Made by a program: the position numbers and the translations under genes. From assembly GCF_058153355.1 (NCBI RefSeq), contig NZ_CM177019.1: a stretch of DNA of 64,000 nucleotides; one strand, 5' to 3'. This document shows positions 1 through 56,988 of the stretch, piece by piece. How positions within the stretch are numbered: position 1 is the stretch's first letter; each line of letters opens with the position of its first letter. Under the pieces are notes generated by a model, which worked only from the letters and a program-made list of their open reading frames with translations, searched no databases and was not told the origin of the DNA.

Positions 1-172
1 GTCGAACGTTTTTCTTGGCGACTGTAAGACCGATACGGGGATGCCCCAGCGAATTCAGGCGGCCGAGAATGGTAATTTGCGGCGTGCCAGCCCGTTGTGG
101 CTGCTGGAAGACGAATGTGAATTGACTGGGAGTTAACAAGCGTAACTCCCTGGGAAATGCGAGCTTAACCAC
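1..172 (-). CDS. rnpA: RNase P protein component, N-terminal part; gene runs off the window start
   Basis: Minus-strand frame from a GTG at 170-172 translates [57 protein letters not shown]; lies directly downstream of rpmH as in the conserved rpmH-rnpA operon. Confidence 0.85.
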
Positions 173-188
173 TCAGGGGTTAGCTTTA

Positions 189-935
<747 letters not shown>

Positions 936-2339
936 GTGTCACTTTCGCTTTGGCAGCAGTGTCTTGCCCGATTGCAGGATGAGTTACCAGCCACAGAATT
1001 CAGTATGTGGATACGCCCATTGCAGGCGGAACTGAGCGATAACACGCTGGCCCTGTACGCGCCAAACCGTTTTGTCCTCGATTGGGTACGGGACAAGTAC
1101 CTTAATAATATCAATGGACTGCTAACCAGTTTCTGCGGAGCGGATGCCCCACAGCTGCGTTTTGAAGTCGGCACCAAACCGGTGACACAAACGCCACAAG
1201 CGGCAGTGACGAGCAACGTCGCGGCCCCAGCACAGGTGGCGCATGCGCAGCCGCAACGTGTTGCGCCTTCTACGCGTTCCGGTTGGGATAACGTCCCGGC
1301 TCCGGCAGAACCGACCTATCGTTCTAACGTAAACGTCAAACACACGTTTGATAACTTCGTTGAAGGTAAATCTAACCAACTGGCGCGCGCGGCGGCTCGT
1401 CAGGTGGCTGATAACCCTGGCGGTGCCTATAACCCGTTGTTCCTTTATGGCGGCACGGGTCTGGGTAAAACTCACCTGCTGCATGCGGTGGGTAACGGCA
1501 TTATGGCGCGTAAGCCGAATGCCAAAGTGGTTTATATGCACTCCGAGCGCTTTGTTCAGGACATGGTTAAAGCCCTGCAAAACAACGCGATCGAAGAGTT
1601 TAAACGCTACTACCGTTCCGTAGATGCACTGCTGATCGACGATATTCAGTTTTTTGCTAATAAAGAACGATCTCAGGAAGAGTTTTTCCACACCTTCAAC
1701 GCCCTGCTGGAAGGTAACCAGCAGATCATTCTCACCTCGGATCGCTATCCGAAAGAGATCAACGGCGTTGAGGATCGTCTGAAATCCCGCTTCGGTTGGG
1801 GACTGACTGTGGCGATCGAACCGCCAGAGTTAGAAACCCGCGTGGCGATCCTGATGAAAAAGGCCGACGAAAACGACATTCGTTTGCCGGGCGAAGTGGC
1901 GTTCTTTATCGCCAAGCGTCTACGCTCTAACGTACGTGAGCTGGAAGGGGCGTTGAACCGCGTCATTGCTAACGCTAACTTTACCGGACGGGCGATCACC
2001 ATCGACTTCGTGCGTGAGGCGCTGCGCGACTTGCTGGCATTGCAGGAAAAACTGGTCACCATCGACAATATTCAGAAGACGGTGGCAGAGTACTACAAGA
2101 TCAAAGTTGCGGATCTCCTTTCCAAGCGTCGATCCCGCTCGGTGGCGCGTCCGCGCCAGATGGCGATGGCGCTGGCGAAAGAGTTGACTAACCACAGTCT
2201 GCCGGAGATTGGCGATGCGTTTGGTGGTCGTGACCACACAACGGTGCTTCATGCTTGCCGGAAGATCGAGCAGTTGCGTGAAGAGAGCCACGATATCAAA
2301 GAAGATTTTTCAAATTTAATCAGAACATTGTCATCGTAA
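936..2339 (+). CDS. dnaA: Chromosomal replication initiator DnaA (GTG start)
   Basis: 467-aa product starting [30 protein letters not shown]; AAA+ Walker [12 protein letters not shown]; the ORF-track start at 924 is an upstream in-frame GTG. Confidence 0.97.
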
Positions 2340-2343
2340 ACCT

Positions 2344-3443
2344 ATGAAATTTACCGTAGAACGTGAGCATTTATTAAAACCGCTACAACAGGTGAGCGGT
2401 CCGTTAGGTGGTCGTCCTACGCTACCGATTCTCGGTAATCTGCTGTTACAGGTTGCTGACGGTACGTTGTCGCTGACCGGTACCGATCTCGAGATGGAAA
2501 TGGTGGCACGTGTTGCGCTGGTTCAGCCGCACGAACCAGGGGCGACGACCGTTCCGGCGCGCAAATTCTTTGATATCTGCCGTGGTCTGCCTGAAGGCGC
2601 GGAAATTGCCGTGCAACTGGAAGGTGAGCGGATGCTGGTGCGTTCCGGGCGTAGCCGTTTTTCGCTTTCCACCCTGCCAGCAGCAGATTTCCCGAACCTC
2701 GATGACTGGCAGAGCGAAGTCGAATTTACCCTGCCGCAGGCGACGATGAAGCGTCTGATTGAAGCGACTCAGTTTTCGATGGCGCATCAGGATGTTCGCT
2801 ATTACTTAAACGGTATGCTGTTCGAAACCGAAGGTGAAGAACTGCGCACCGTGGCGACCGACGGTCACCGTCTGGCGGTCTGTTCCATGCCAATTGGTCA
2901 GTCTTTGCCAAGCCATTCGGTGATCGTGCCGCGTAAAGGTGTGATTGAACTGATGCGTATGCTCGACGGCGGCGACAATCCGCTGCGCGTGCAAATTGGC
3001 AGCAACAATATACGTGCCCACGTCGGCGACTTTATCTTCACCTCCAAACTGGTGGATGGTCGCTTCCCGGATTACCGCCGTGTTCTGCCGAAGAACCCGG
3101 ACAAACATCTGGAAGCAGGCTGCGATCTGCTCAAGCAGGCGTTTGCCCGTGCGGCGATCCTCTCCAACGAGAAATTCCGCGGCGTGCGTCTGTATGTCAG
3201 CGAAAATCAGCTGAAAATCACCGCCAATAACCCGGAACAGGAAGAAGCGGAAGAGATCCTCGACGTTACCTATAGCGGTGCGGAGATGGAAATTGGCTTC
3301 AACGTCAGCTATGTGCTGGATGTTCTGAACGCGCTGAAATGCGAAAACGTGCGCATGATGCTGACCGATTCGGTTTCCAGTGTGCAGATTGAAGATGCCG
3401 CATCACAGTCGGCTGCCTATGTTGTCATGCCAATGAGACTGTA

Positions 3444-3444
<1 letters not shown>
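2344..3444 (+). CDS. dnaN: DNA polymerase III beta sliding clamp
   Basis: 366-aa [40 protein letters not shown]; conserved position after dnaA. Confidence 0.97.
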
Positions 3445-6960
<3,516 letters not shown>

Positions 6961-6985
6961 TGGCGTTAACAATGCGAGCGTGCAT

Positions 6986-7080
6986 GATGCGCTACGCTTA
7001 TCAGGCCTACGAGACTCCTGCAATATTTTGAATTTGCATGATTTTGTAGGCCGGATCAGACGTTAACGCCGCATTCGGCA
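6986..7080. repeat. Pair of REP palindromes (BIME-like) downstream of gyrB
   Basis: gatgcgctacgcttatcaggcctac (6986-7010) and inverted copy gtaggccggatcagacgttaacgccgcattcggc (7047-7080). Confidence 0.7.
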
Positions 7081-7092
7081 AGAAGCTATAAG

Positions 7093-7126
7093 AAAAGGGC
7101 GGAGATCATCTCCGCCCTTTTTATTT
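7093..7126 (+). terminator. Intrinsic terminator candidate after gyrB
   Basis: GC stem gggcggag / ctccgccc followed by a T-run (ctttttatttc). Confidence 0.65.
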
Positions 7127-7199
7127 CTGCAATCCGCGATTATCATCCCGCAGATCTATACTTTTTGAGTCAACACGTAACGCTTTACAGGTGATTATC

Positions 7200-7598
7200 A
7201 TGGGGCTTTTTGATGAAGTTGTCGGCGCCTTTCTGAAAGGCGATGCGGGGAAATATCAGGCTATTTTGAGTTGGGTTGAGGAGCAGGGTGGCATTCAGGT
7301 GCTGTTGGAAAAACTGCAAAGTGGCGGCTTAGGTGCCATTCTCTCAACCTGGTTGAGTAATCAACAGGGCAATCAGCCGGTGAGCGGCGAGCAACTGGAG
7401 TCGGCGCTCGGCACAAATGCGGTGTCCGATCTCGGGCAAAAACTGGGTGTAGATGCCAGTACGGCTTCCAGCTTGCTGGCAGAGCAACTGCCAAAGATTA
7501 TTGATGCTCTCTCACCGCAGGGTGAAGTGTCTTCGCAAACCAATAACGATCTGCTTTCCGCAGGCATGGAACTGCTGAAAGGGAAACTCTTCCGCTAA
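7200..7598 (+). CDS. yidB: DUF937 family protein YidB
   Basis: 132-aa product from ATG at 7200 (MGLFDEVVGAFLKGDAGKYQ); the ORF-track start at 7191 is an upstream GTG. Confidence 0.85.
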   Translation: MGLFDEVVGAFLKGDAGKYQAILSWVEEQGGIQVLLEKLQSGGLGAILSTWLSNQQGNQPVSGEQLESALGTNAVSDLGQKLGVDASTASSLLAEQLPKIIDALSPQGEVSSQTNNDLLSAGMELLKGKLFR

Positions 7599-7600
7599 GC

Positions 7601-7640
7601 AAAAGGGGAGCATGCAACGCGCGTTGCATCCCCCTTTTCC
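7601..7640. other. Near-perfect 40-bp palindrome / hairpin between yidB and yidA
   Basis: aaaaggggagcatgcaacgc | gcgttgcatcccccttttcc, centred at 7620/7621. Confidence 0.5.
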
Positions 7641-7712
7641 CTCGGGTGTTGTACTGATTTTTGAGCGGAATCGCGTTAGCATGGGTCAGGAACCAATCTA
7701 CCTGGGGAACTC

Positions 7713-8525
7713 ATGGCTATCAAACTCATTGCTATCGATATGGATGGCACCCTTCTGCTGCCCGATCACACCATTTCACCCGCTGTTAAAAACGCGATTG
7801 CCGCAGCTCGCGCCCGTGGCGTGAATGTCGTGCTAACGACGGGTCGCCCTTATGCAGGTGTTCACAACTACCTGAAAGAGCTGCATATGGAACAGCCGGG
7901 CGACTACTGCATTACTTATAACGGCGCGCTGGTACAGAAGGCCGCCGATGGTAGCACCGTGGCGCAAACCGCTCTCAGCTATGACGACTACCGTTTCCTG
8001 GAAAAACTCTCTCGCGAAGTCGGTTCTCATTTCCACGCCCTGGACCGCACCACGCTGTACACCGCCAACCGGGATATCAGCCCTTACACCGTGCATGAGT
8101 CGTTTGTGGCGACGATCCCGCTGGTGTTCTGCGAAGCGGAGAAAATGGACCCCAATACCCAGTTCCTGAAAGTGATGATGATTGATGAACCCGCCATCCT
8201 CGACCAGGCTATCGCGCGTATTCCGCAGGAAGTGAAAGAGAAATATACCGTGCTGAAAAGTGCGCCGTACTTCCTCGAAATCCTCGATAAACGCGTTAAC
8301 AAAGGTACAGGTGTGAAATCACTGGCCGATGTGCTGGGCATTAAGCCGGAAGAAATCATGGCGATTGGCGATCAGGAAAACGACATCGCAATGATTGAAT
8401 ATGCAGGTGTTGGTGTGGCAATGGATAACGCTATTCCTTCGGTGAAAGAAGTGGCGAACTTTGTCACCAAATCCAACCTGGAAGATGGCGTGGCGTTTGC
8501 TATTGAGAAGTATGTGCTGAATTAA
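7713..8525 (+). CDS. yidA: HAD-family (Cof-type) sugar phosphatase YidA
   Basis: 270-aa ORF; HAD motif I in IAIDMDGTLL; C-terminal GDQENDIAM motif. Confidence 0.93.
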   Translation: MAIKLIAIDMDGTLLLPDHTISPAVKNAIAAARARGVNVVLTTGRPYAGVHNYLKELHMEQPGDYCITYNGALVQKAADGSTVAQTALSYDDYRFLEKLSREVGSHFHALDRTTLYTANRDISPYTVHESFVATIPLVFCEAEKMDPNTQFLKVMMIDEPAILDQAIARIPQEVKEKYTVLKSAPYFLEILDKRVNKGTGVKSLADVLGIKPEEIMAIGDQENDIAMIEYAGVGVAMDNAIPSVKEVANFVTKSNLEDGVAFAIEKYVLN

Positions 8526-8534
8526 TCAGTGGGA

Positions 8535-8561
8535 GGGCAAACTGCATAAATGCGTTTGCCC
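8535..8561. terminator. Hairpin between the convergent genes yidA and yidX; possible bidirectional terminator
   Basis: gggcaaac ... gtttgccc stem. Confidence 0.5.
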
Positions 8562-8568
8562 GCAGCGA

Positions 8569-9225
8569 TTAACAATTTCTGGTCGTGCATAAAATCAGGA
8601 ACTGGAGTGGTGACGTTACTATATCCAGCGTAAGAGTGACTGGTAGCAGTGCATTAGCGAGGCCGCGCGGAACGCCATCAGTTGCTTTGTACTTATAAAA
8701 TCCCACCGTAAAGGGTTGATGGAAAACCATCACGTTTGAGTAATCCGCTTTTTTATTTTTCTGGTGGATAGAGCCTTTCAGGCCGTCAAGTGCCCAGGTA
8801 CAACGCTGGGTATTACAAATAAAACCATATTGTGTCGCCAGTGCTTTATCTTCCTCATTATCCCAGTCGTAATAGAGCGTTATTGAACCAGAAAAATTAG
8901 TATCACTGCTGCTTAAAATAAATTTCGCGTTATCGGAAACGGTGATTCTTTCGCCATGAATTGCCGGATCGTTCAGCATTTTAACCACCTCGCCGCCGCC
9001 CGTGGTCAACAGATAGTCCAACGATTCACCAACAAAAACATAGCCTTTCGTACCGTTACTATCCTCTGCCAGCGATAACCCCTTAATCGAGTCTGACCGC
9101 CATTGCTCGGCATGTGGAGGACTTGCGGTATTGGAAACCAACCCCCAAGTGAGACAACCGGTCAACGCAAATGCCAAAGAACACAAACCGGCAGCCTTAA
9201 AAAATCCCTTAAAATTCAACTTTAT
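8569..9225 (-). CDS. yidX: Lipoprotein YidX (218 codons if started at the ATA codon 9223-9225)
   Basis: Signal peptide plus lipobox ([23 protein letters not shown]); AAAGGA Shine-Dalgarno 5 nt upstream; the codon at the expected start is ATA, not ATG; the ORF-track frame stays open up to 9342. Confidence 0.75.
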
Positions 9226-9359
9226 GACTAATCCTTTAAACGAGTAGCTAAGCCGTTGAAAGCATACTCTTCTTTCCCTCCTGTTTAGCGCCTGATATCC
9301 CTTTTCAGATTTCTGCCCGACGCATGTCATTTTTTTATGCATTGTTCTTTTTGTGATCT

Positions 9360-9440
9360 AAATTGTAGTACAACAATATAACTTTGTACTACATTACGCA
9401 TACAGCAAACGCGAACGTCATCACGCTGGTACTACAAAAT
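9360..9440 (+). promoter_or_regulatory. dgo promoter / DgoR operator region
   Basis: Three copies of TGTA(G/C)TACA (9364-9372, 9386-9394, 9429-9437) immediately upstream of dgoR; consistent with GntR/FadR-type operators. Confidence 0.55.
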
Positions 9441-9502
9441 TGCCGCGTTATGCATCGATCGGGGTAAAGTAGAGAAGTACATACAGAGCACAAGGACTCT
9501 CC

Positions 9503-10192
9503 ATGACTCTCAATAAAACCGATCGCATCGTCATTACGCTGGGCAAACAGATCGTTCACGGCAAATACGTGCCAGGCTCGCCGCTTCCGGCCGAGGCGGA
9601 ACTTTGTGAGGAGTTTGCAACCTCGCGCAACATCATCCGTGAGGTGTTTCGTTCGCTGATGGCGAAGCGGCTGATTGAAATGAAACGTTATCGCGGGGCG
9701 TTTGTGGCACCGCGTAATCAGTGGAATTACCTCGATACTGACGTGCTGCAATGGGTGCTGGAAAACGACTACGACCCACGGCTTATCAGTGCAATGAGCG
9801 AAGTGCGAAATCTGGTGGAACCGGCGATTGCCCGTTGGGCGGCAGAGCGCGCGACTTCCAGCGATCTGGCGCAGATTGAATCAGCGCTGAACGAGATGAT
9901 CGCCAACAATCAGGACCGCGAAGCGTTTAACGAAGCGGATATTCGCTATCACGAGGCGGTACTGCAATCAGTGCATAACCCGGTGTTACAGCAACTTAGC
10001 ATTGCGATTAGTTCATTACAGCGGGCGGTTTTTGAACGAACCTGGATGGGCGATGAGGCCAACATGCCGCAAACGCTCCAGGAACATAAGGCGCTGTTTG
10101 ATGCGATACGGCATCAGGACGGCGATGCGGCAGAGCAGGCGGCGCTTACCATGATCGCCAGCTCGACACGAAGGTTAAAGGAAATCACATGA
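9503..10192 (+). CDS. dgoR: GntR/FadR-family repressor of D-galactonate catabolism
   Basis: 229-aa ORF; first gene of the dgo cluster. Confidence 0.92.
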   Translation: MTLNKTDRIVITLGKQIVHGKYVPGSPLPAEAELCEEFATSRNIIREVFRSLMAKRLIEMKRYRGAFVAPRNQWNYLDTDVLQWVLENDYDPRLISAMSEVRNLVEPAIARWAAERATSSDLAQIESALNEMIANNQDREAFNEADIRYHEAVLQSVHNPVLQQLSIAISSLQRAVFERTWMGDEANMPQTLQEHKALFDAIRHQDGDAAEQAALTMIASSTRRLKEIT

Positions 10193-11067
10193 CAGCTCGC
10201 TACATCGCAATTGACTGGGGATCGACCAATCTGCGCGCCTGGCTTTATCAGGGCGACCACTGCCTGGACAGCAGGCAATCAGAAGCAGGCGTTACGCGTC
10301 TGAACGGAAAATCTCCGGCTGCGGTGTTAGCAGAAGTGACGACCGACTGGTGTGAAGAGAATACGCCAGTGGTGATGGCAGGAATGGTTGGCAGCAATGT
10401 CGGCTGGAAAGTTGCGCCGTATTTATCTGTTCCTGCCCGTTTTTCGTCTATTGGCGAACAATTAACGTCTGTTGGCGACAATATCTGGATTATTCCCGGA
10501 TTATGCGTTTCTCATGATGATAACCACAATGTGATGCGCGGCGAAGAAACACAATTGATCGGCGCGCGTGCTTTGGCTCCTTCCTCTCTTTATGTCATGC
10601 CCGGTACGCATTGCAAATGGGTGCAGGCCGATAGCCAGCAAATCAACGATTTTCGCACCGTGATGACCGGTGAATTACATCATTTACTGTTAAATCATTC
10701 ATTGATTGGCGCAGGTTTACCACCGCAGGAAAACTCTGCCGATGCCTTCGCGGCTGGCCTTGAGCGTGGTCTCAATGCGCCCGCCATATTGCCGCAGCTT
10801 TTTGAAGTTCGTGCCTCGCATGTGCTGGGAACACTTCCCCGTGAACAGGTCAGCGAATTTCTCTCTGGTTTGTTGATTGGCGCAGAGGTCGCCAGTATGC
10901 GCGACTACGTGGTCCATCAACACGCCATCACCCTTGTCGCCGGAACATCGCTGACTGCACGCTACCAGCAAGCCTTTCAGGCGATGGGTTGCGACGTGAC
11001 GGCGGTGGCGGGCGACACGGCATTTCAGGCTGGTATAAGGAGCATCGCTCATGCAGTGGCAAACTAA
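10189..11067 (+). CDS. dgoK: 2-dehydro-3-deoxygalactonokinase
   Basis: 292-aa ORF; start overlaps the dgoR stop. Confidence 0.92.
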   Translation: MTARYIAIDWGSTNLRAWLYQGDHCLDSRQSEAGVTRLNGKSPAAVLAEVTTDWCEENTPVVMAGMVGSNVGWKVAPYLSVPARFSSIGEQLTSVGDNIWIIPGLCVSHDDNHNVMRGEETQLIGARALAPSSLYVMPGTHCKWVQADSQQINDFRTVMTGELHHLLLNHSLIGAGLPPQENSADAFAAGLERGLNAPAILPQLFEVRASHVLGTLPREQVSEFLSGLLIGAEVASMRDYVVHQHAITLVAGTSLTARYQQAFQAMGCDVTAVAGDTAFQAGIRSIAHAVAN

Positions 11068-11668
11068 ACTCCCGCTGATCGCCATTTTGCGCGGTATTAC
11101 GCCCGACGAGGCGCTGGCGCATGTTGGCGCGGTGATTGACGCTGGGTTCGACGCGGTTGAAATCCCTCTGAATTCCCCACAATGGGAACAAAGCATTCCC
11201 GCCATCGTTGATGCGTATGGCGACAAGGCGTTGATTGGCGCAGGTACGGTACTGAAACCTGAACAGGTCGATGCGCTCGCCAGGATGGGCTGTCAGCTCA
11301 TCGTTACGCCCAATATCCATAGTGAAGTGATCCGCCGCGCGGTGGGCTATGGCATGACCGTTTGCCCCGGCTGCGCGACGGCGACAGAAGCCTTTACCGC
11401 GATCGACGCGGGCGCTCAGGCGCTGAAAATATTCCCGTCATCGGCTTTTGGGCCGCAATACATCAAAGCGTTAAAAGCGGTATTACCGCAGGACATCCCG
11501 GTCTTTGCCGTAGGCGGTGTGACGCCAGAAAACCTGGCGCAGTGGATAGACGCAGGTTGTGCAGGGGCGGGCTTAGGCAGCGATCTCTATCGCGCCGGGC
11601 AGTCCGTAGAACGCACCGCGCAGCAGGCAGCAGCATTTGTTAAGGCGTATCGAGAGGCAGTGCAATGA
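11051..11668 (+). CDS. dgoA: 2-dehydro-3-deoxy-6-phosphogalactonate aldolase
   Basis: 205-aa ORF in conserved dgo gene order. Confidence 0.92.
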
Positions 11669-12702
11669 AAATCACCAACATTACTACGTATCGTTTACCT
11701 CCCCGCTGGATGTTCCTGAAAATTGAAACTGATGAAGGCGTGGTCGGTTGGGGCGAGCCCGTGATCGAAGGCCGCGCTCGTACGGTGGAAGCGGCAGTTC
11801 ACGAGCTGAGTGACTATTTGATTGGTCAGGATCCATCGCGCATCAATGACTTATGGCAAGTGATGTATCGCGCCGGATTTTATCGTGGCGGTCCGATTCT
11901 GATGAGCGCCATCGCCGGGATCGACCAGGCGTTATGGGATATCAAAGGTAAAGTGCTGAATGCGCCGGTCTGGCAACTGATGGGCGGCCTGGTTCGCGAC
12001 AAAATTAAAGCCTACAGTTGGGTCGGCGGCGATCGTCCGGCGGATGTTATCGACGGCATTAAAACGCTACGCGAAATCGGCTTCGATACCTTCAAACTGA
12101 ACGGTTGTGAAGAACTGGGATTGATTGATAACTCCCGCGCGGTAGATGCGGCGGTCAACACCGTGGCACAAATTCGTGAAGCTTTTGGCAATCAGATTGA
12201 GTTTGGTCTTGATTTCCACGGTCGCGTCAGCGCGCCGATGGCGAAAGTGCTGATTAAAGAACTGGAACCGTATCGCCCTCTGTTTATTGAAGAGCCGGTG
12301 CTGGCGGAACAAGCCGAATACTACCCGAAACTGGCAGCACAAACTCACATCCCACTGGCGGCGGGTGAGCGCATGTTCTCACGTTTCGATTTTAAACGTG
12401 TGCTGGAAGCTGGCGGTATTTCGATTCTGCAACCCGATCTTTCTCACGCAGGTGGTATTACCGAATGCTACAAAATTGCCGGAATGGCGGAAGCCTATGA
12501 CGTGACCCTTGCGCCGCACTGTCCGCTCGGCCCGATTGCACTGGCGGCTTGCCTGCATATCGACTTTGTTTCCTATAACGCGGTACTTCAGGAACAAAGT
12601 ATGGGCATTCATTACAACAAAGGCGCGGAGTTACTCGACTTTGTGAAAAATAAAGAAGACTTCAGCATGGTCGGTAATGCCGATCAGTTAAGGATCAGTT
12701 GA
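11665..12702 (+). pseudogene. dgoD: D-galactonate dehydratase, truncated by IS4 after about codon 336; the last 8 codons and the stop are read from IS4 sequence
   Basis: Enolase-superfamily N-terminus ([32 protein letters not shown]); reading frame runs into the IS4 left inverted repeat at 12675 and ends NADQLRIS*; full-length DgoD is about 382 aa as I recall. Confidence 0.88.
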
Positions 12703-14100
12703 CCGATCCAGTGGCTGTGTAAGAATCCGGAAACGCTCACTTGTTTCCGGATTTTTTTATGCACATTGGACAGGCTCTTGATCTGGTATCCCGTTACGAT
12801 TCTCTGCGTAACCCACTGACTTCTCTGGGGGATTACCTCGACCCCGAACTCATCTCTCGTTGCCTTGCCGAATCAGGTACTGTAACGCTACGCAAGCGCC
12901 GTCTTCCCCTCGAAATGATGGTCTGGTGTATTGTTGGCATGGCGCTTGAGCGTAAAGAACCTCTTCACCAGATTGTGAATCGCCTGGACATCATGCTGCC
13001 GGGCAATCGCCCCTTCGTTGCCCCCAGTGCCGTTATTCAGGCCCGCCAGCGCCTGGGAAGTGAGGCTGTCCGCCGCGTGTTCACGAAAACAGCGCAGCTC
13101 TGGCATAACGCCACGCCGCATCCGCACTGGTGCGGCCTGACCCTGCTGGCCATCGATGGTGTGTTCTGGCGCACACCGGATACACCAGAGAACGATGCAG
13201 CCTTCCCCCGCCAGACACATGCCGGGAACCCGGCGCTCTACCCGCAGGTCAAAATGGTCTGCCAGATGGAACTGACCAGCCATCTGCTGACGGCTGCAGC
13301 CTTCGGCACGATGAAGAACAGCGAAAATGAGCTTGCTGAGCAACTTATAGAACAAACCGGCGATAACACTCTGACGTTAATGGATAAAGGTTATTACTCA
13401 CTGGGACTGTTAAATGCCTGGAGCCTGGCGGGAGAACACCGCCACTGGATGATACCTCTCAGAAAGGGAGCGCAATATGAAGAGATCAGAAAACTGGGTA
13501 AAGGCGATCATCTGGTGAAGCTGAAAACCAGCCCGCAGGCACGAAAAAAGTGGCCGGGACTGGGAAATGAAGTGACAGCCCGCCTGCTGACCGTGACGCG
13601 CAAAGGAAAAGTCTGCCATCTGCTGACGTCGATGACGGACGCCATGCGCTTCCCCGGAGGAGAAATGGCGGATCTGTACAGTCATCGCTGGGAAATCGAA
13701 CTGGGATACAGGGAGATAAAACAGACGATGCAACTGAGCAGGCTGACGCTGAGAAGTAAAAAGCCGGAGCTTGTGGAGCAAGAGCTGTGGGGTGTCTTAC
13801 TGGCTTATAATCTGGTGAGATATCAGATGATTAAAATGGCGGAACATCTGAAAGGTTACTGGCCGAATCAACTGAGTTTCTCAGAATCATGCGGAATGGT
13901 GATGAGAATGCTGATGACATTGCAGGGCGCTTCACCGGGACGTATACCGGAGCTGATGCGCGATCTTGCAAGTATGGGACAACTTGTGAAATTACCGACA
14001 AGAAGGGAAAGGGCCTTCCCGAGAGTGGTAAAGGAGAGGCCCTGGAAATACCCCACAGCCCCGAAAAAGAGCCAGTCAGTTGCTTAACTGACTGGCATTA
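12675..14100 (+). mobile_element. IS4, complete (1426 bp) with imperfect 18-bp terminal inverted repeats
   Basis: Left IR taatgccgatcagttaag (12675-12692); right IR cttaactgactggcatta (14083-14100); flanks tcagcatggtcgg and gaccgatttggcc do not form a direct repeat. Confidence 0.93.
12759..14087 (+). CDS. insG: IS4 transposase (DDE)
   Basis: 442-aa product from ATG at 12759 ([31 protein letters not shown]...); the ORF-track start at 12741 is an upstream TTG. Confidence 0.93.
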
Positions 14101-14134
14101 GACCGATTTGGCCCCGTTCTATTTTTTAGTGAAC

Positions 14135-16600
<2,466 letters not shown>

Positions 16601-39030: not shown

Positions 39031-39164
39031 TTTTAAGATAGTAAGGTGTCAGAAAGATGACAAGGCAGTGACGGCATGGGGGAGGGAAAATGGGAGATGG
39101 GGCACGGATAAGCGGGAAAAATAGAAGGTCTGAATCAAACTCTACAGATTGCTCATCGTTTCAT

Positions 39165-39264
<100 letters not shown>

Positions 39265-39324
39265 ATTTTACATTTGTAACCTGTCTCAAAGGAGTCTTTT
39301 GACTCCTTATCAATCAACGTGTTA

Positions 39325-55673: not shown

Positions 55674-56926
<1,253 letters not shown>

Positions 56927-56956
56927 CATGCCTGCAATCTGGGAAACCGGGGTAGA

Positions 56957-56988
<32 letters not shown>

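Follow-up and report, generated by a model that had tools for sequence, protein, structure and literature searches.

The window analysed here, a stretch of 64,000 nucleotides from contig NZ_CM177019.1 (GCF_058153355.1), contains a single copy of IS4 that joins two chromosomal regions which are not adjacent in K-12. The locus raises the question of how these two regions came to meet at one insertion sequence. The first-pass annotation had suggested an inversion between two IS4 copies, with an assembly chimera as the other possibility. The features on which the argument depends are the following.

1-12674, plus strand: left block, dnaA-dnaN-recF-gyrB-yidB-yidA-dgoRKA-dgoD', covered by one 99.26% alignment to 2020CK-00188
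11665-12674, plus strand: dgoD lacking its 3' end, the first 336 of 382 codons and 2 nt more (translation and match to annotated dgoD)
12662-12674, plus strand: presumed target duplication of the IS4 insertion in dgoD, present here in one copy, with a length within 11-14 bp
12675-14100, plus strand: complete IS4, left end to right end
12675-12692, plus strand: left terminal inverted repeat, TAATGCCGATCAGTTAAG, an arm of 18 nt
12759-14087, plus strand: IS4 transposase gene (insG-type), intact, 442 aa (ORF list)
14083-14100, plus strand: right terminal inverted repeat, CTTAACTGACTGGCATTA, an arm of 18 nt
14101-14112, plus strand: single copy of the glgP-terminator target duplication, gaccgatttggc, defined from the empty site in 2020CK-00188
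14101-14134, minus strand: distal half of the glgP intrinsic terminator, split by IS4 (fold of the intact site)
14135-16582, minus strand: glgP, intact, 815 aa (ORF list)
14101-64000, plus strand: right block, glgP-glgACXB-asd-gnt-ugp-liv-rpoH-ftsYEX-zntA-nikA, 98-99% and colinear with 2020CK-00188

In the closest complete genome, that of E. coli 2020CK-00188, the two break points are separated by 357 kb, each block aligning to the window on a different strand. In MG1655, both glgP (3564134-3566581) and dgoD (3871850-3872998) are minus-strand genes, with about 308 kb between the break points; in the window, dgoD is on the plus strand and glgP on the minus strand. The first-pass annotation had given a K-12 separation of roughly 0.3 Mb and blocks meeting in opposite map orientation; the MG1655 coordinates bear out the distance, and non-adjacency and opposite orientation can both be read directly from the comparison. 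The left block is oriented away from oriC, which lies beyond the left end of the window. A deletion between direct IS4 copies was also considered and was rejected because the blocks are in opposite orientation.

The polarity of the DNA changes at the same point. GC skew is about +0.04 in the left block and about -0.05 in the right block, with the switch of sign at IS4, and the gene-strand bias goes from 10 plus-strand genes out of 11 on the left to 31 minus-strand genes among the 44 annotated on the right. Since both skew and strand bias flip, the right block resembles, in composition and gene orientation, DNA whose replication ran in the opposite direction during its evolution. A recent inversion should produce such a flip, and so should a chimeric assembly, to the same degree.

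The element at the junction is a complete IS4 of 1426 bp, 99.4-99.9% identical over its full length to IS4 copies of other genomes and annotated in relatives as "IS4-like element IS4 family transposase". The span 12662-14113 given earlier does hold this element, although it adds 13 bp on each side. The IS4 subgroup comprises elements of 1400-1650 bp, IS4 itself being 1426 bp long (PMC2266710 Table 1), a range into which the window copy fits. Its terminal inverted repeats have arms of 18 nt that match at 16 of 18 positions (89% complementary), and its ends, TAATGCC... and ...GGCATTA, fit the -AATR end consensus of the subgroup. As is characteristic of the subgroup, a single ORF codes for the DDE transposase; the protein carries the Pfam domains Nterm_IS4 and DDE_Tnp_1 and is on record, in exactly this form of 442 aa, in 6926 blocks. 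The element differs from the IS4 type of strains S21 and XH988 at 8-9 sites spread across its length, and from another common IS4 type at 1-4 sites. A left/right mosaic, sought within the element as a trace of recombination, gave no informative pattern. The rest of the 64-kb window, which also contains one IS621-like element, is colinear with relatives. With respect to typing, the GlgP allele of the window (exact protein in 81612 blocks) and its IS4 transposase allele are far too common to be used as lineage markers.

What sets this IS4 apart is its flanks. The 13-mers next to its two ends, tcagcatggtcgg and gaccgatttggcc, match at only 2 of 13 positions, and the sequences cagcatggtcgg and gaccgatttggc that flank it are not a target duplication. 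No direct repeat bracketing the window IS4 was found, neither of the 10-13 bp proper to the IS4 subgroup nor of any other length, as had been noticed earlier. Members of this subgroup produce repeats of 10-13 bp and show a strong specificity in the arms of their targets (PMC2266710). As a control, 12 simple IS4 insertions of other genomes were examined (ten in GCA_900448835.1, one in GCA_900448625.1, and one in strain S21), and all 12 are bracketed by perfect duplications of 11-14 bp, typically within sites composed of an A-run, a hairpin, and a T-run. Because the control insertions are duplicated without exception and the subgroup generates 10-13 bp repeats, the missing duplication is a real anomaly of the window copy. 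This absence would be explained by an exchange of flanks between two copies and is no argument against the identity of the element as IS4.

The right flank has a clear origin. The right end of IS4 is located 34 bp beyond the stop codon of glgP and within the hairpin of its terminator. Thus, the earlier assignment of this flank to the 3' region of glgP holds for the side of the gene, but not for its coding region, which is intact. When the intact site is folded, this terminator forms a stem of 11 bp that closes a loop of 5 nt and precedes a U8 tract (-17.6 kcal/mol, z = -4.2); a search of positions 12000-15000 for Rfam families gave no match. The empty site in 2020CK-00188 reads aaaaaaaacgg-gaccgatttggc-cccgttctatttttt, so that the window retains, next to glgP, the same half-site that simple IS4 insertions duplicate at this position in other genomes.

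Among 5426 complete E. coli genomes, the junction between the right end of IS4 and glgP is present in 18. The matching left junction, whose neighbour is a PstS-family gene or yzgL, is found in the same 18 genomes, and in 17 of them both junctions are adjacent, that is, the insertions are simple. These simple insertions (for instance, those of S21 and 401651) share with the window the insertion point and the orientation with respect to glgP. However, their left neighbour is still the natural one (the PstS-family gene or yzgL), a duplication of 11-12 bp brackets them, their IS4 shows 8-9 differences from that of the window, and their flank is of the gaccctttggc type instead of gaccgatttggc. The duplication is of 11 bp (gaccctttggc) in S21 and of 12 bp (gaccctttggcc) in XH988. 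Since duplications, flank types, and IS4 sequences differ among S21, XH988, and the window, the glgP terminator has been hit independently several times and is a recurrent hot spot for IS4. To judge from these sequence differences, the insertion of the window probably arose independently of those of the S21 and XH988 type.

The left end of IS4 interrupts dgoD at codon 337, in agreement with the earlier placement of this flank in the interior of the gene. The reading frame of dgoD enters IS4 for 28 nt and ends at the stop codon 12700-12702, giving an ORF (11665-12702) for a fusion of 345 aa. In its native form the site reads aaagaagact[tcagcatggtcgg]cggcttcttt, with A-run and T-run arms like those around simple IS4 insertions; the partner copy of the flank is predicted at the reciprocal junction.

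This left junction is absent from all 5426 complete RefSeq E. coli genomes, and a scan of JGI metagenomes for it gave no match. A degenerate pattern for the window left junction and for the left junction predicted on the reciprocal side found only two chance matches among species-representative genomes, in Kosakonia and Pectobacterium. The exact 345-aa fusion ORF is nevertheless present in three short-read contigs of public runs. For instance, a contig of SRR31441161 matches 11038 bp of the window at 100% identity, and one of SRR28786219 has a single mismatch in 5091 bp, both including the dgoD::IS4 left junction. These contigs end 28 nt into IS4, so that they confirm the insertion and do not display its far flank. 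Because the left junction occurs in independent short-read assemblies, the IS4 in dgoD, although rare, is real in the clone.

A precedent for the whole arrangement is provided by strain XH988 (NZ_CP019355.1). Its first junction, at 221.6 kb on the plus strand, reads ...ctcctcctgaag/IS4/gaccctttggcc-glgP, and the second, at 324.5 kb on the other strand, reads PstS-gaccctttggcc/IS4/ctcctcctgaag-treF. Two 12-bp duplications are thus swapped between the IS4 copies, a classic mark of homologous recombination between inverted IS copies, which here inverted 103 kb. Strain 401651, whose identity to the junction queries equals that of XH988, has a simple insertion. XH988 resembles the window in the element itself, in the IS4 copy at the glgP-proximal hot spot with its right end toward glgP, in the lack of a duplication at the glgP junction, and in the opposite orientation of the flanks; the window junction has the anatomy of the first junction of XH988. 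The two cases differ in the partner, which in XH988 is located in the yhjB-treF intergenic region, downstream of yhjB, and not in dgoD, and in the inverted length, about 103 kb in XH988 versus the 310-360 kb or so proposed for the window. In addition, both junctions with their swapped 12-bp duplications are seen in XH988, whereas one junction is seen in the window.

Inversions and deletions mediated by insertion sequences are general in E. coli and Shigella (PMC5009759; PMC8072062). In K-12 mutation-accumulation lines, IS1 and IS5 accounted for every detected recombination event except two, and IS4, present in a single copy, for none (PMC5009759); here, in contrast, the element is IS4 and the host is a natural isolate.

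Taken together, these results make it likely that the window carries one of the two new junctions of a large inversion produced by homologous recombination between two inverted IS4 copies, as first proposed: the flank loci, the missing duplication, the half-site of a hot spot, the switch in skew, and the precedent of XH988 all support it. One IS4 would have entered the hairpin of the glgP terminator with its right end facing glgP, and another would have entered dgoD at codon 337 with its left end facing the 5' part of the gene. The latter insertion would inactivate D-galactonate dehydratase and separate dgoT from its operon. The two inverted copies, about 0.31-0.36 Mb apart on the left replichore, would then have recombined by a RecA-type mechanism, flipping the DNA between them, and dgoD5'-IS4-glgP would be the product seen here. 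From this one junction we infer that there is a second IS4 copy and a reciprocal junction, in what order the events took place, and by which mechanism the copies recombined. Every testable prediction of an inversion between inverted IS4 copies agrees with the data, and the inversion is in this sense supported.

The reciprocal junction can be predicted in some detail. It should read (PstS-family gene / glpD side)-gaccgatttggc-IS4-(t)cagcatggtcgg-cggcttcttt...dgoD3'-dgoT, with the ends ...AAAAAAAACGGGACCGATTTGG(C)(C)/TAATGCCGATCAG... and ...CTGACTGGCATTA/(T)(C)AGCATGGTCGGCGGCTTCTTTAAACC. The predicted junction between the right end of IS4 and dgoD3' had no match in the scan of JGI metagenomes. 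The 48-aa tail of DgoD, a product expected on the reciprocal side, is on record in 331 blocks, and the contigs displayed among them have either a frameshifted dgoD (noisy assemblies) or an IS1 insertion, with no IS4 junction. Products of 59 and 58 aa, expected if the duplication is of 12 bp, are not on record, and neither is the PstS-family protein of the closest relative.

The main competitor of the inversion is an assembly mis-join, in which the genome would have simple IS4 insertions in both dgoD and the glgP terminator, and the 1.4-kb repeat, collapsed during assembly, would have been linked to the wrong exits. An inversion between inverted IS copies creates no new half-junctions: both orientations hold the same four, so that they are indistinguishable by short paired reads (PMC5009759). 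The polarity flip, as said above, fits a chimera just as well, the short-read contigs of the clone break 28 nt inside IS4, and no other genome or assembly with the arrangement of the window junction was found among complete E. coli genomes, short-read contigs, species representatives, or metagenomes. On the other hand, the full IS4 lies inside the contig between 12.7 kb and 50 kb of unique sequence, which suggests a long-read or hybrid assembly, and a repeat of 1.4 kb is easily spanned in assemblies of these kinds. Moreover, a reference-guided assembly would have given the non-inverted order, and the finished genome of XH988 has a genuine junction of the kind seen in the window, with both reciprocal junctions present. 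On balance, a mis-join is unlikely, while keeping more than a token chance. Another consideration concerns fitness, since an inversion within one replichore that turns genes head-on to replication is expected to carry some cost. Because rpoH, ftsYEX, and about 70% of the right-block genes would be head-on, some cost is expected here as well, and this was counted against the inversion.

Two further histories start from real IS4 activity. The recombination between IS4 copies could have taken place within nested or overlapping rearrangements or a translocation, with another reciprocal junction and no simple 0.3-Mb inversion. Some genomes are rich in IS4, with as many as 25 matching places in a single genome, and the view to the right of the junction covers only 50 kb; however, a 64-kb window with one IS4, one IS621-like element, and otherwise colinear sequence does not suggest heavy rearrangement, and such a complex history appears improbable. 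Much less credit still is given to a one-step intramolecular replicative transposition, in which the IS4 of the glgP terminator would have attacked dgoD, producing the second copy and the inversion at once without a simple dgoD::IS4 intermediate. Its end product would be identical, with inverted IS copies at both ends and each duplication split between the junctions, but it is not the expected chemistry: IS4-family transposases are described as conservative, cut-and-paste enzymes, and the 12 other IS4 copies examined are all simple insertions with duplications. The distinction between conservative and replicative transposition has been outlined (PMC2266710).

If the inversion by recombination between the two IS4 copies is real, a stretch of about 0.3 Mb adjoining the origin region would have its replication run against the polarity under which it evolved, and most transcription in the segment that holds rpoH, ftsYEX, and the operons liv, ugp, and glg would meet replication head-on. 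DgoD would lack its last 45 residues and dgoT would be away from its operon, so that D-galactonate catabolism, and growth on this compound, should be lost. The glgP terminator would be halved. Inversions mediated by insertion sequences are a well-known class and no new mechanism is involved here; the specific event is new relative to the 5426 complete genomes.

The glgP terminator appears in these data both as a repeated target of IS4 and as an anchor of rearrangements. A more tentative and rather doubtful idea is that its hairpin acts as a landing pad that repeatedly seeds large, origin-proximal inversions within one replichore (103 kb in XH988 and about 310-360 kb here), and that the clone carries and transmits a head-on segment of 0.3 Mb that includes rpoH and ftsYEX. 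If so, it would be a case from nature in which the fitness cost of replichore-internal inversions could be tested. In practical terms, the junction can serve as a flag for assembly validation and strain typing. As a separate observation, the dgoD::IS4 allele is common to at least two sequencing runs.

The intrinsic terminator hairpin of glgP is a recurrent site of IS4 insertion, with IS4 found in it in 18 of the 5426 complete E. coli genomes. Its occurrences considered here are:

Window 14101-14134: glgP intrinsic terminator hairpin, an IS4 site
L001 (stored locus) 1764-3211: the same site
L002, E. coli XH988, NZ_CP019355.1 218610-225208: the same site, one of the two loci of the IS4 x IS4 inversion
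L042, E. coli XH988, NZ_CP019355.1 321984-327584: the other inversion locus, where the PstS-side half of the site now lies next to treF

The target duplications at this terminator are either 11 or 12 bp long and the left neighbour varies, being a PstS-family gene or yzgL. Since both duplication length and left neighbour differ, IS4 has hit the terminator independently. In XH988, recombination between two IS4 copies has inverted 103 kb, from the glgP terminator to the yhjB-treF spacer, and the 12-bp target duplications are swapped between the junctions. Strain 401651 carries a simple IS4 insertion and lacks this inversion.

The Logan contigs from two short-read runs that share the dgoD::IS4 left junction (L003, SRR31441161; L004, SRR28786219) both stop 28 nt inside IS4. 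Their assembler presumably used k = 31, for which a stop 30 nt into the element would be expected. If k was indeed 31, the 28-nt stop is a weak hint that the genome holds a further left junction of IS4 whose flank ends in gg; this might be, for example, the flank ...gaccgatttgg of the 11-bp duplication at the glgP site.

The exact 24-nt left end of IS4 also occurs in Kosakonia oryziphila (NZ_FMBC01000003.1) and Pectobacterium carotovorum (NZ_FQWI01000006.1). In Kosakonia, 92 nt are 97.8% identical to IS4, as far as the stored locus extends. Either contamination or a genuine horizontal transfer of IS4 could account for these left ends.

In the public collection, 331 blocks list the final 48 codons of dgoD as a gene of their own. 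Among the contigs that could be displayed, such calls result from frameshifts in error-prone long-read assemblies, and several of these frameshifts fall at the A-run gtgaaaaa(c/t)aaag, which lies just before the 48 codons; in GCA_900448625.1 the separate call is due to an IS1 insertion.

A further element lies in the zntA-tusA spacer, which is rich in REP:

55700-56982: IS621-like insertion; the window has 1283 bp between the two genes, against 105 bp in 2020CK-00188, the closest complete genome
55898-56878, + strand: its transposase ORF, 326 aa

The region 55700-56982 matched no Rfam family, and the element is 96-97% identical to sequences annotated in many E. coli genomes as "IS110-like element IS621 family transposase".

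Between ugpB and livF, 2020CK-00188 has about 0.9 kb (L015 31011-31923) with a gene for a tetratricopeptide-repeat protein, which is missing from the window; in its place stand about 213 bases without a match (39112-39324).
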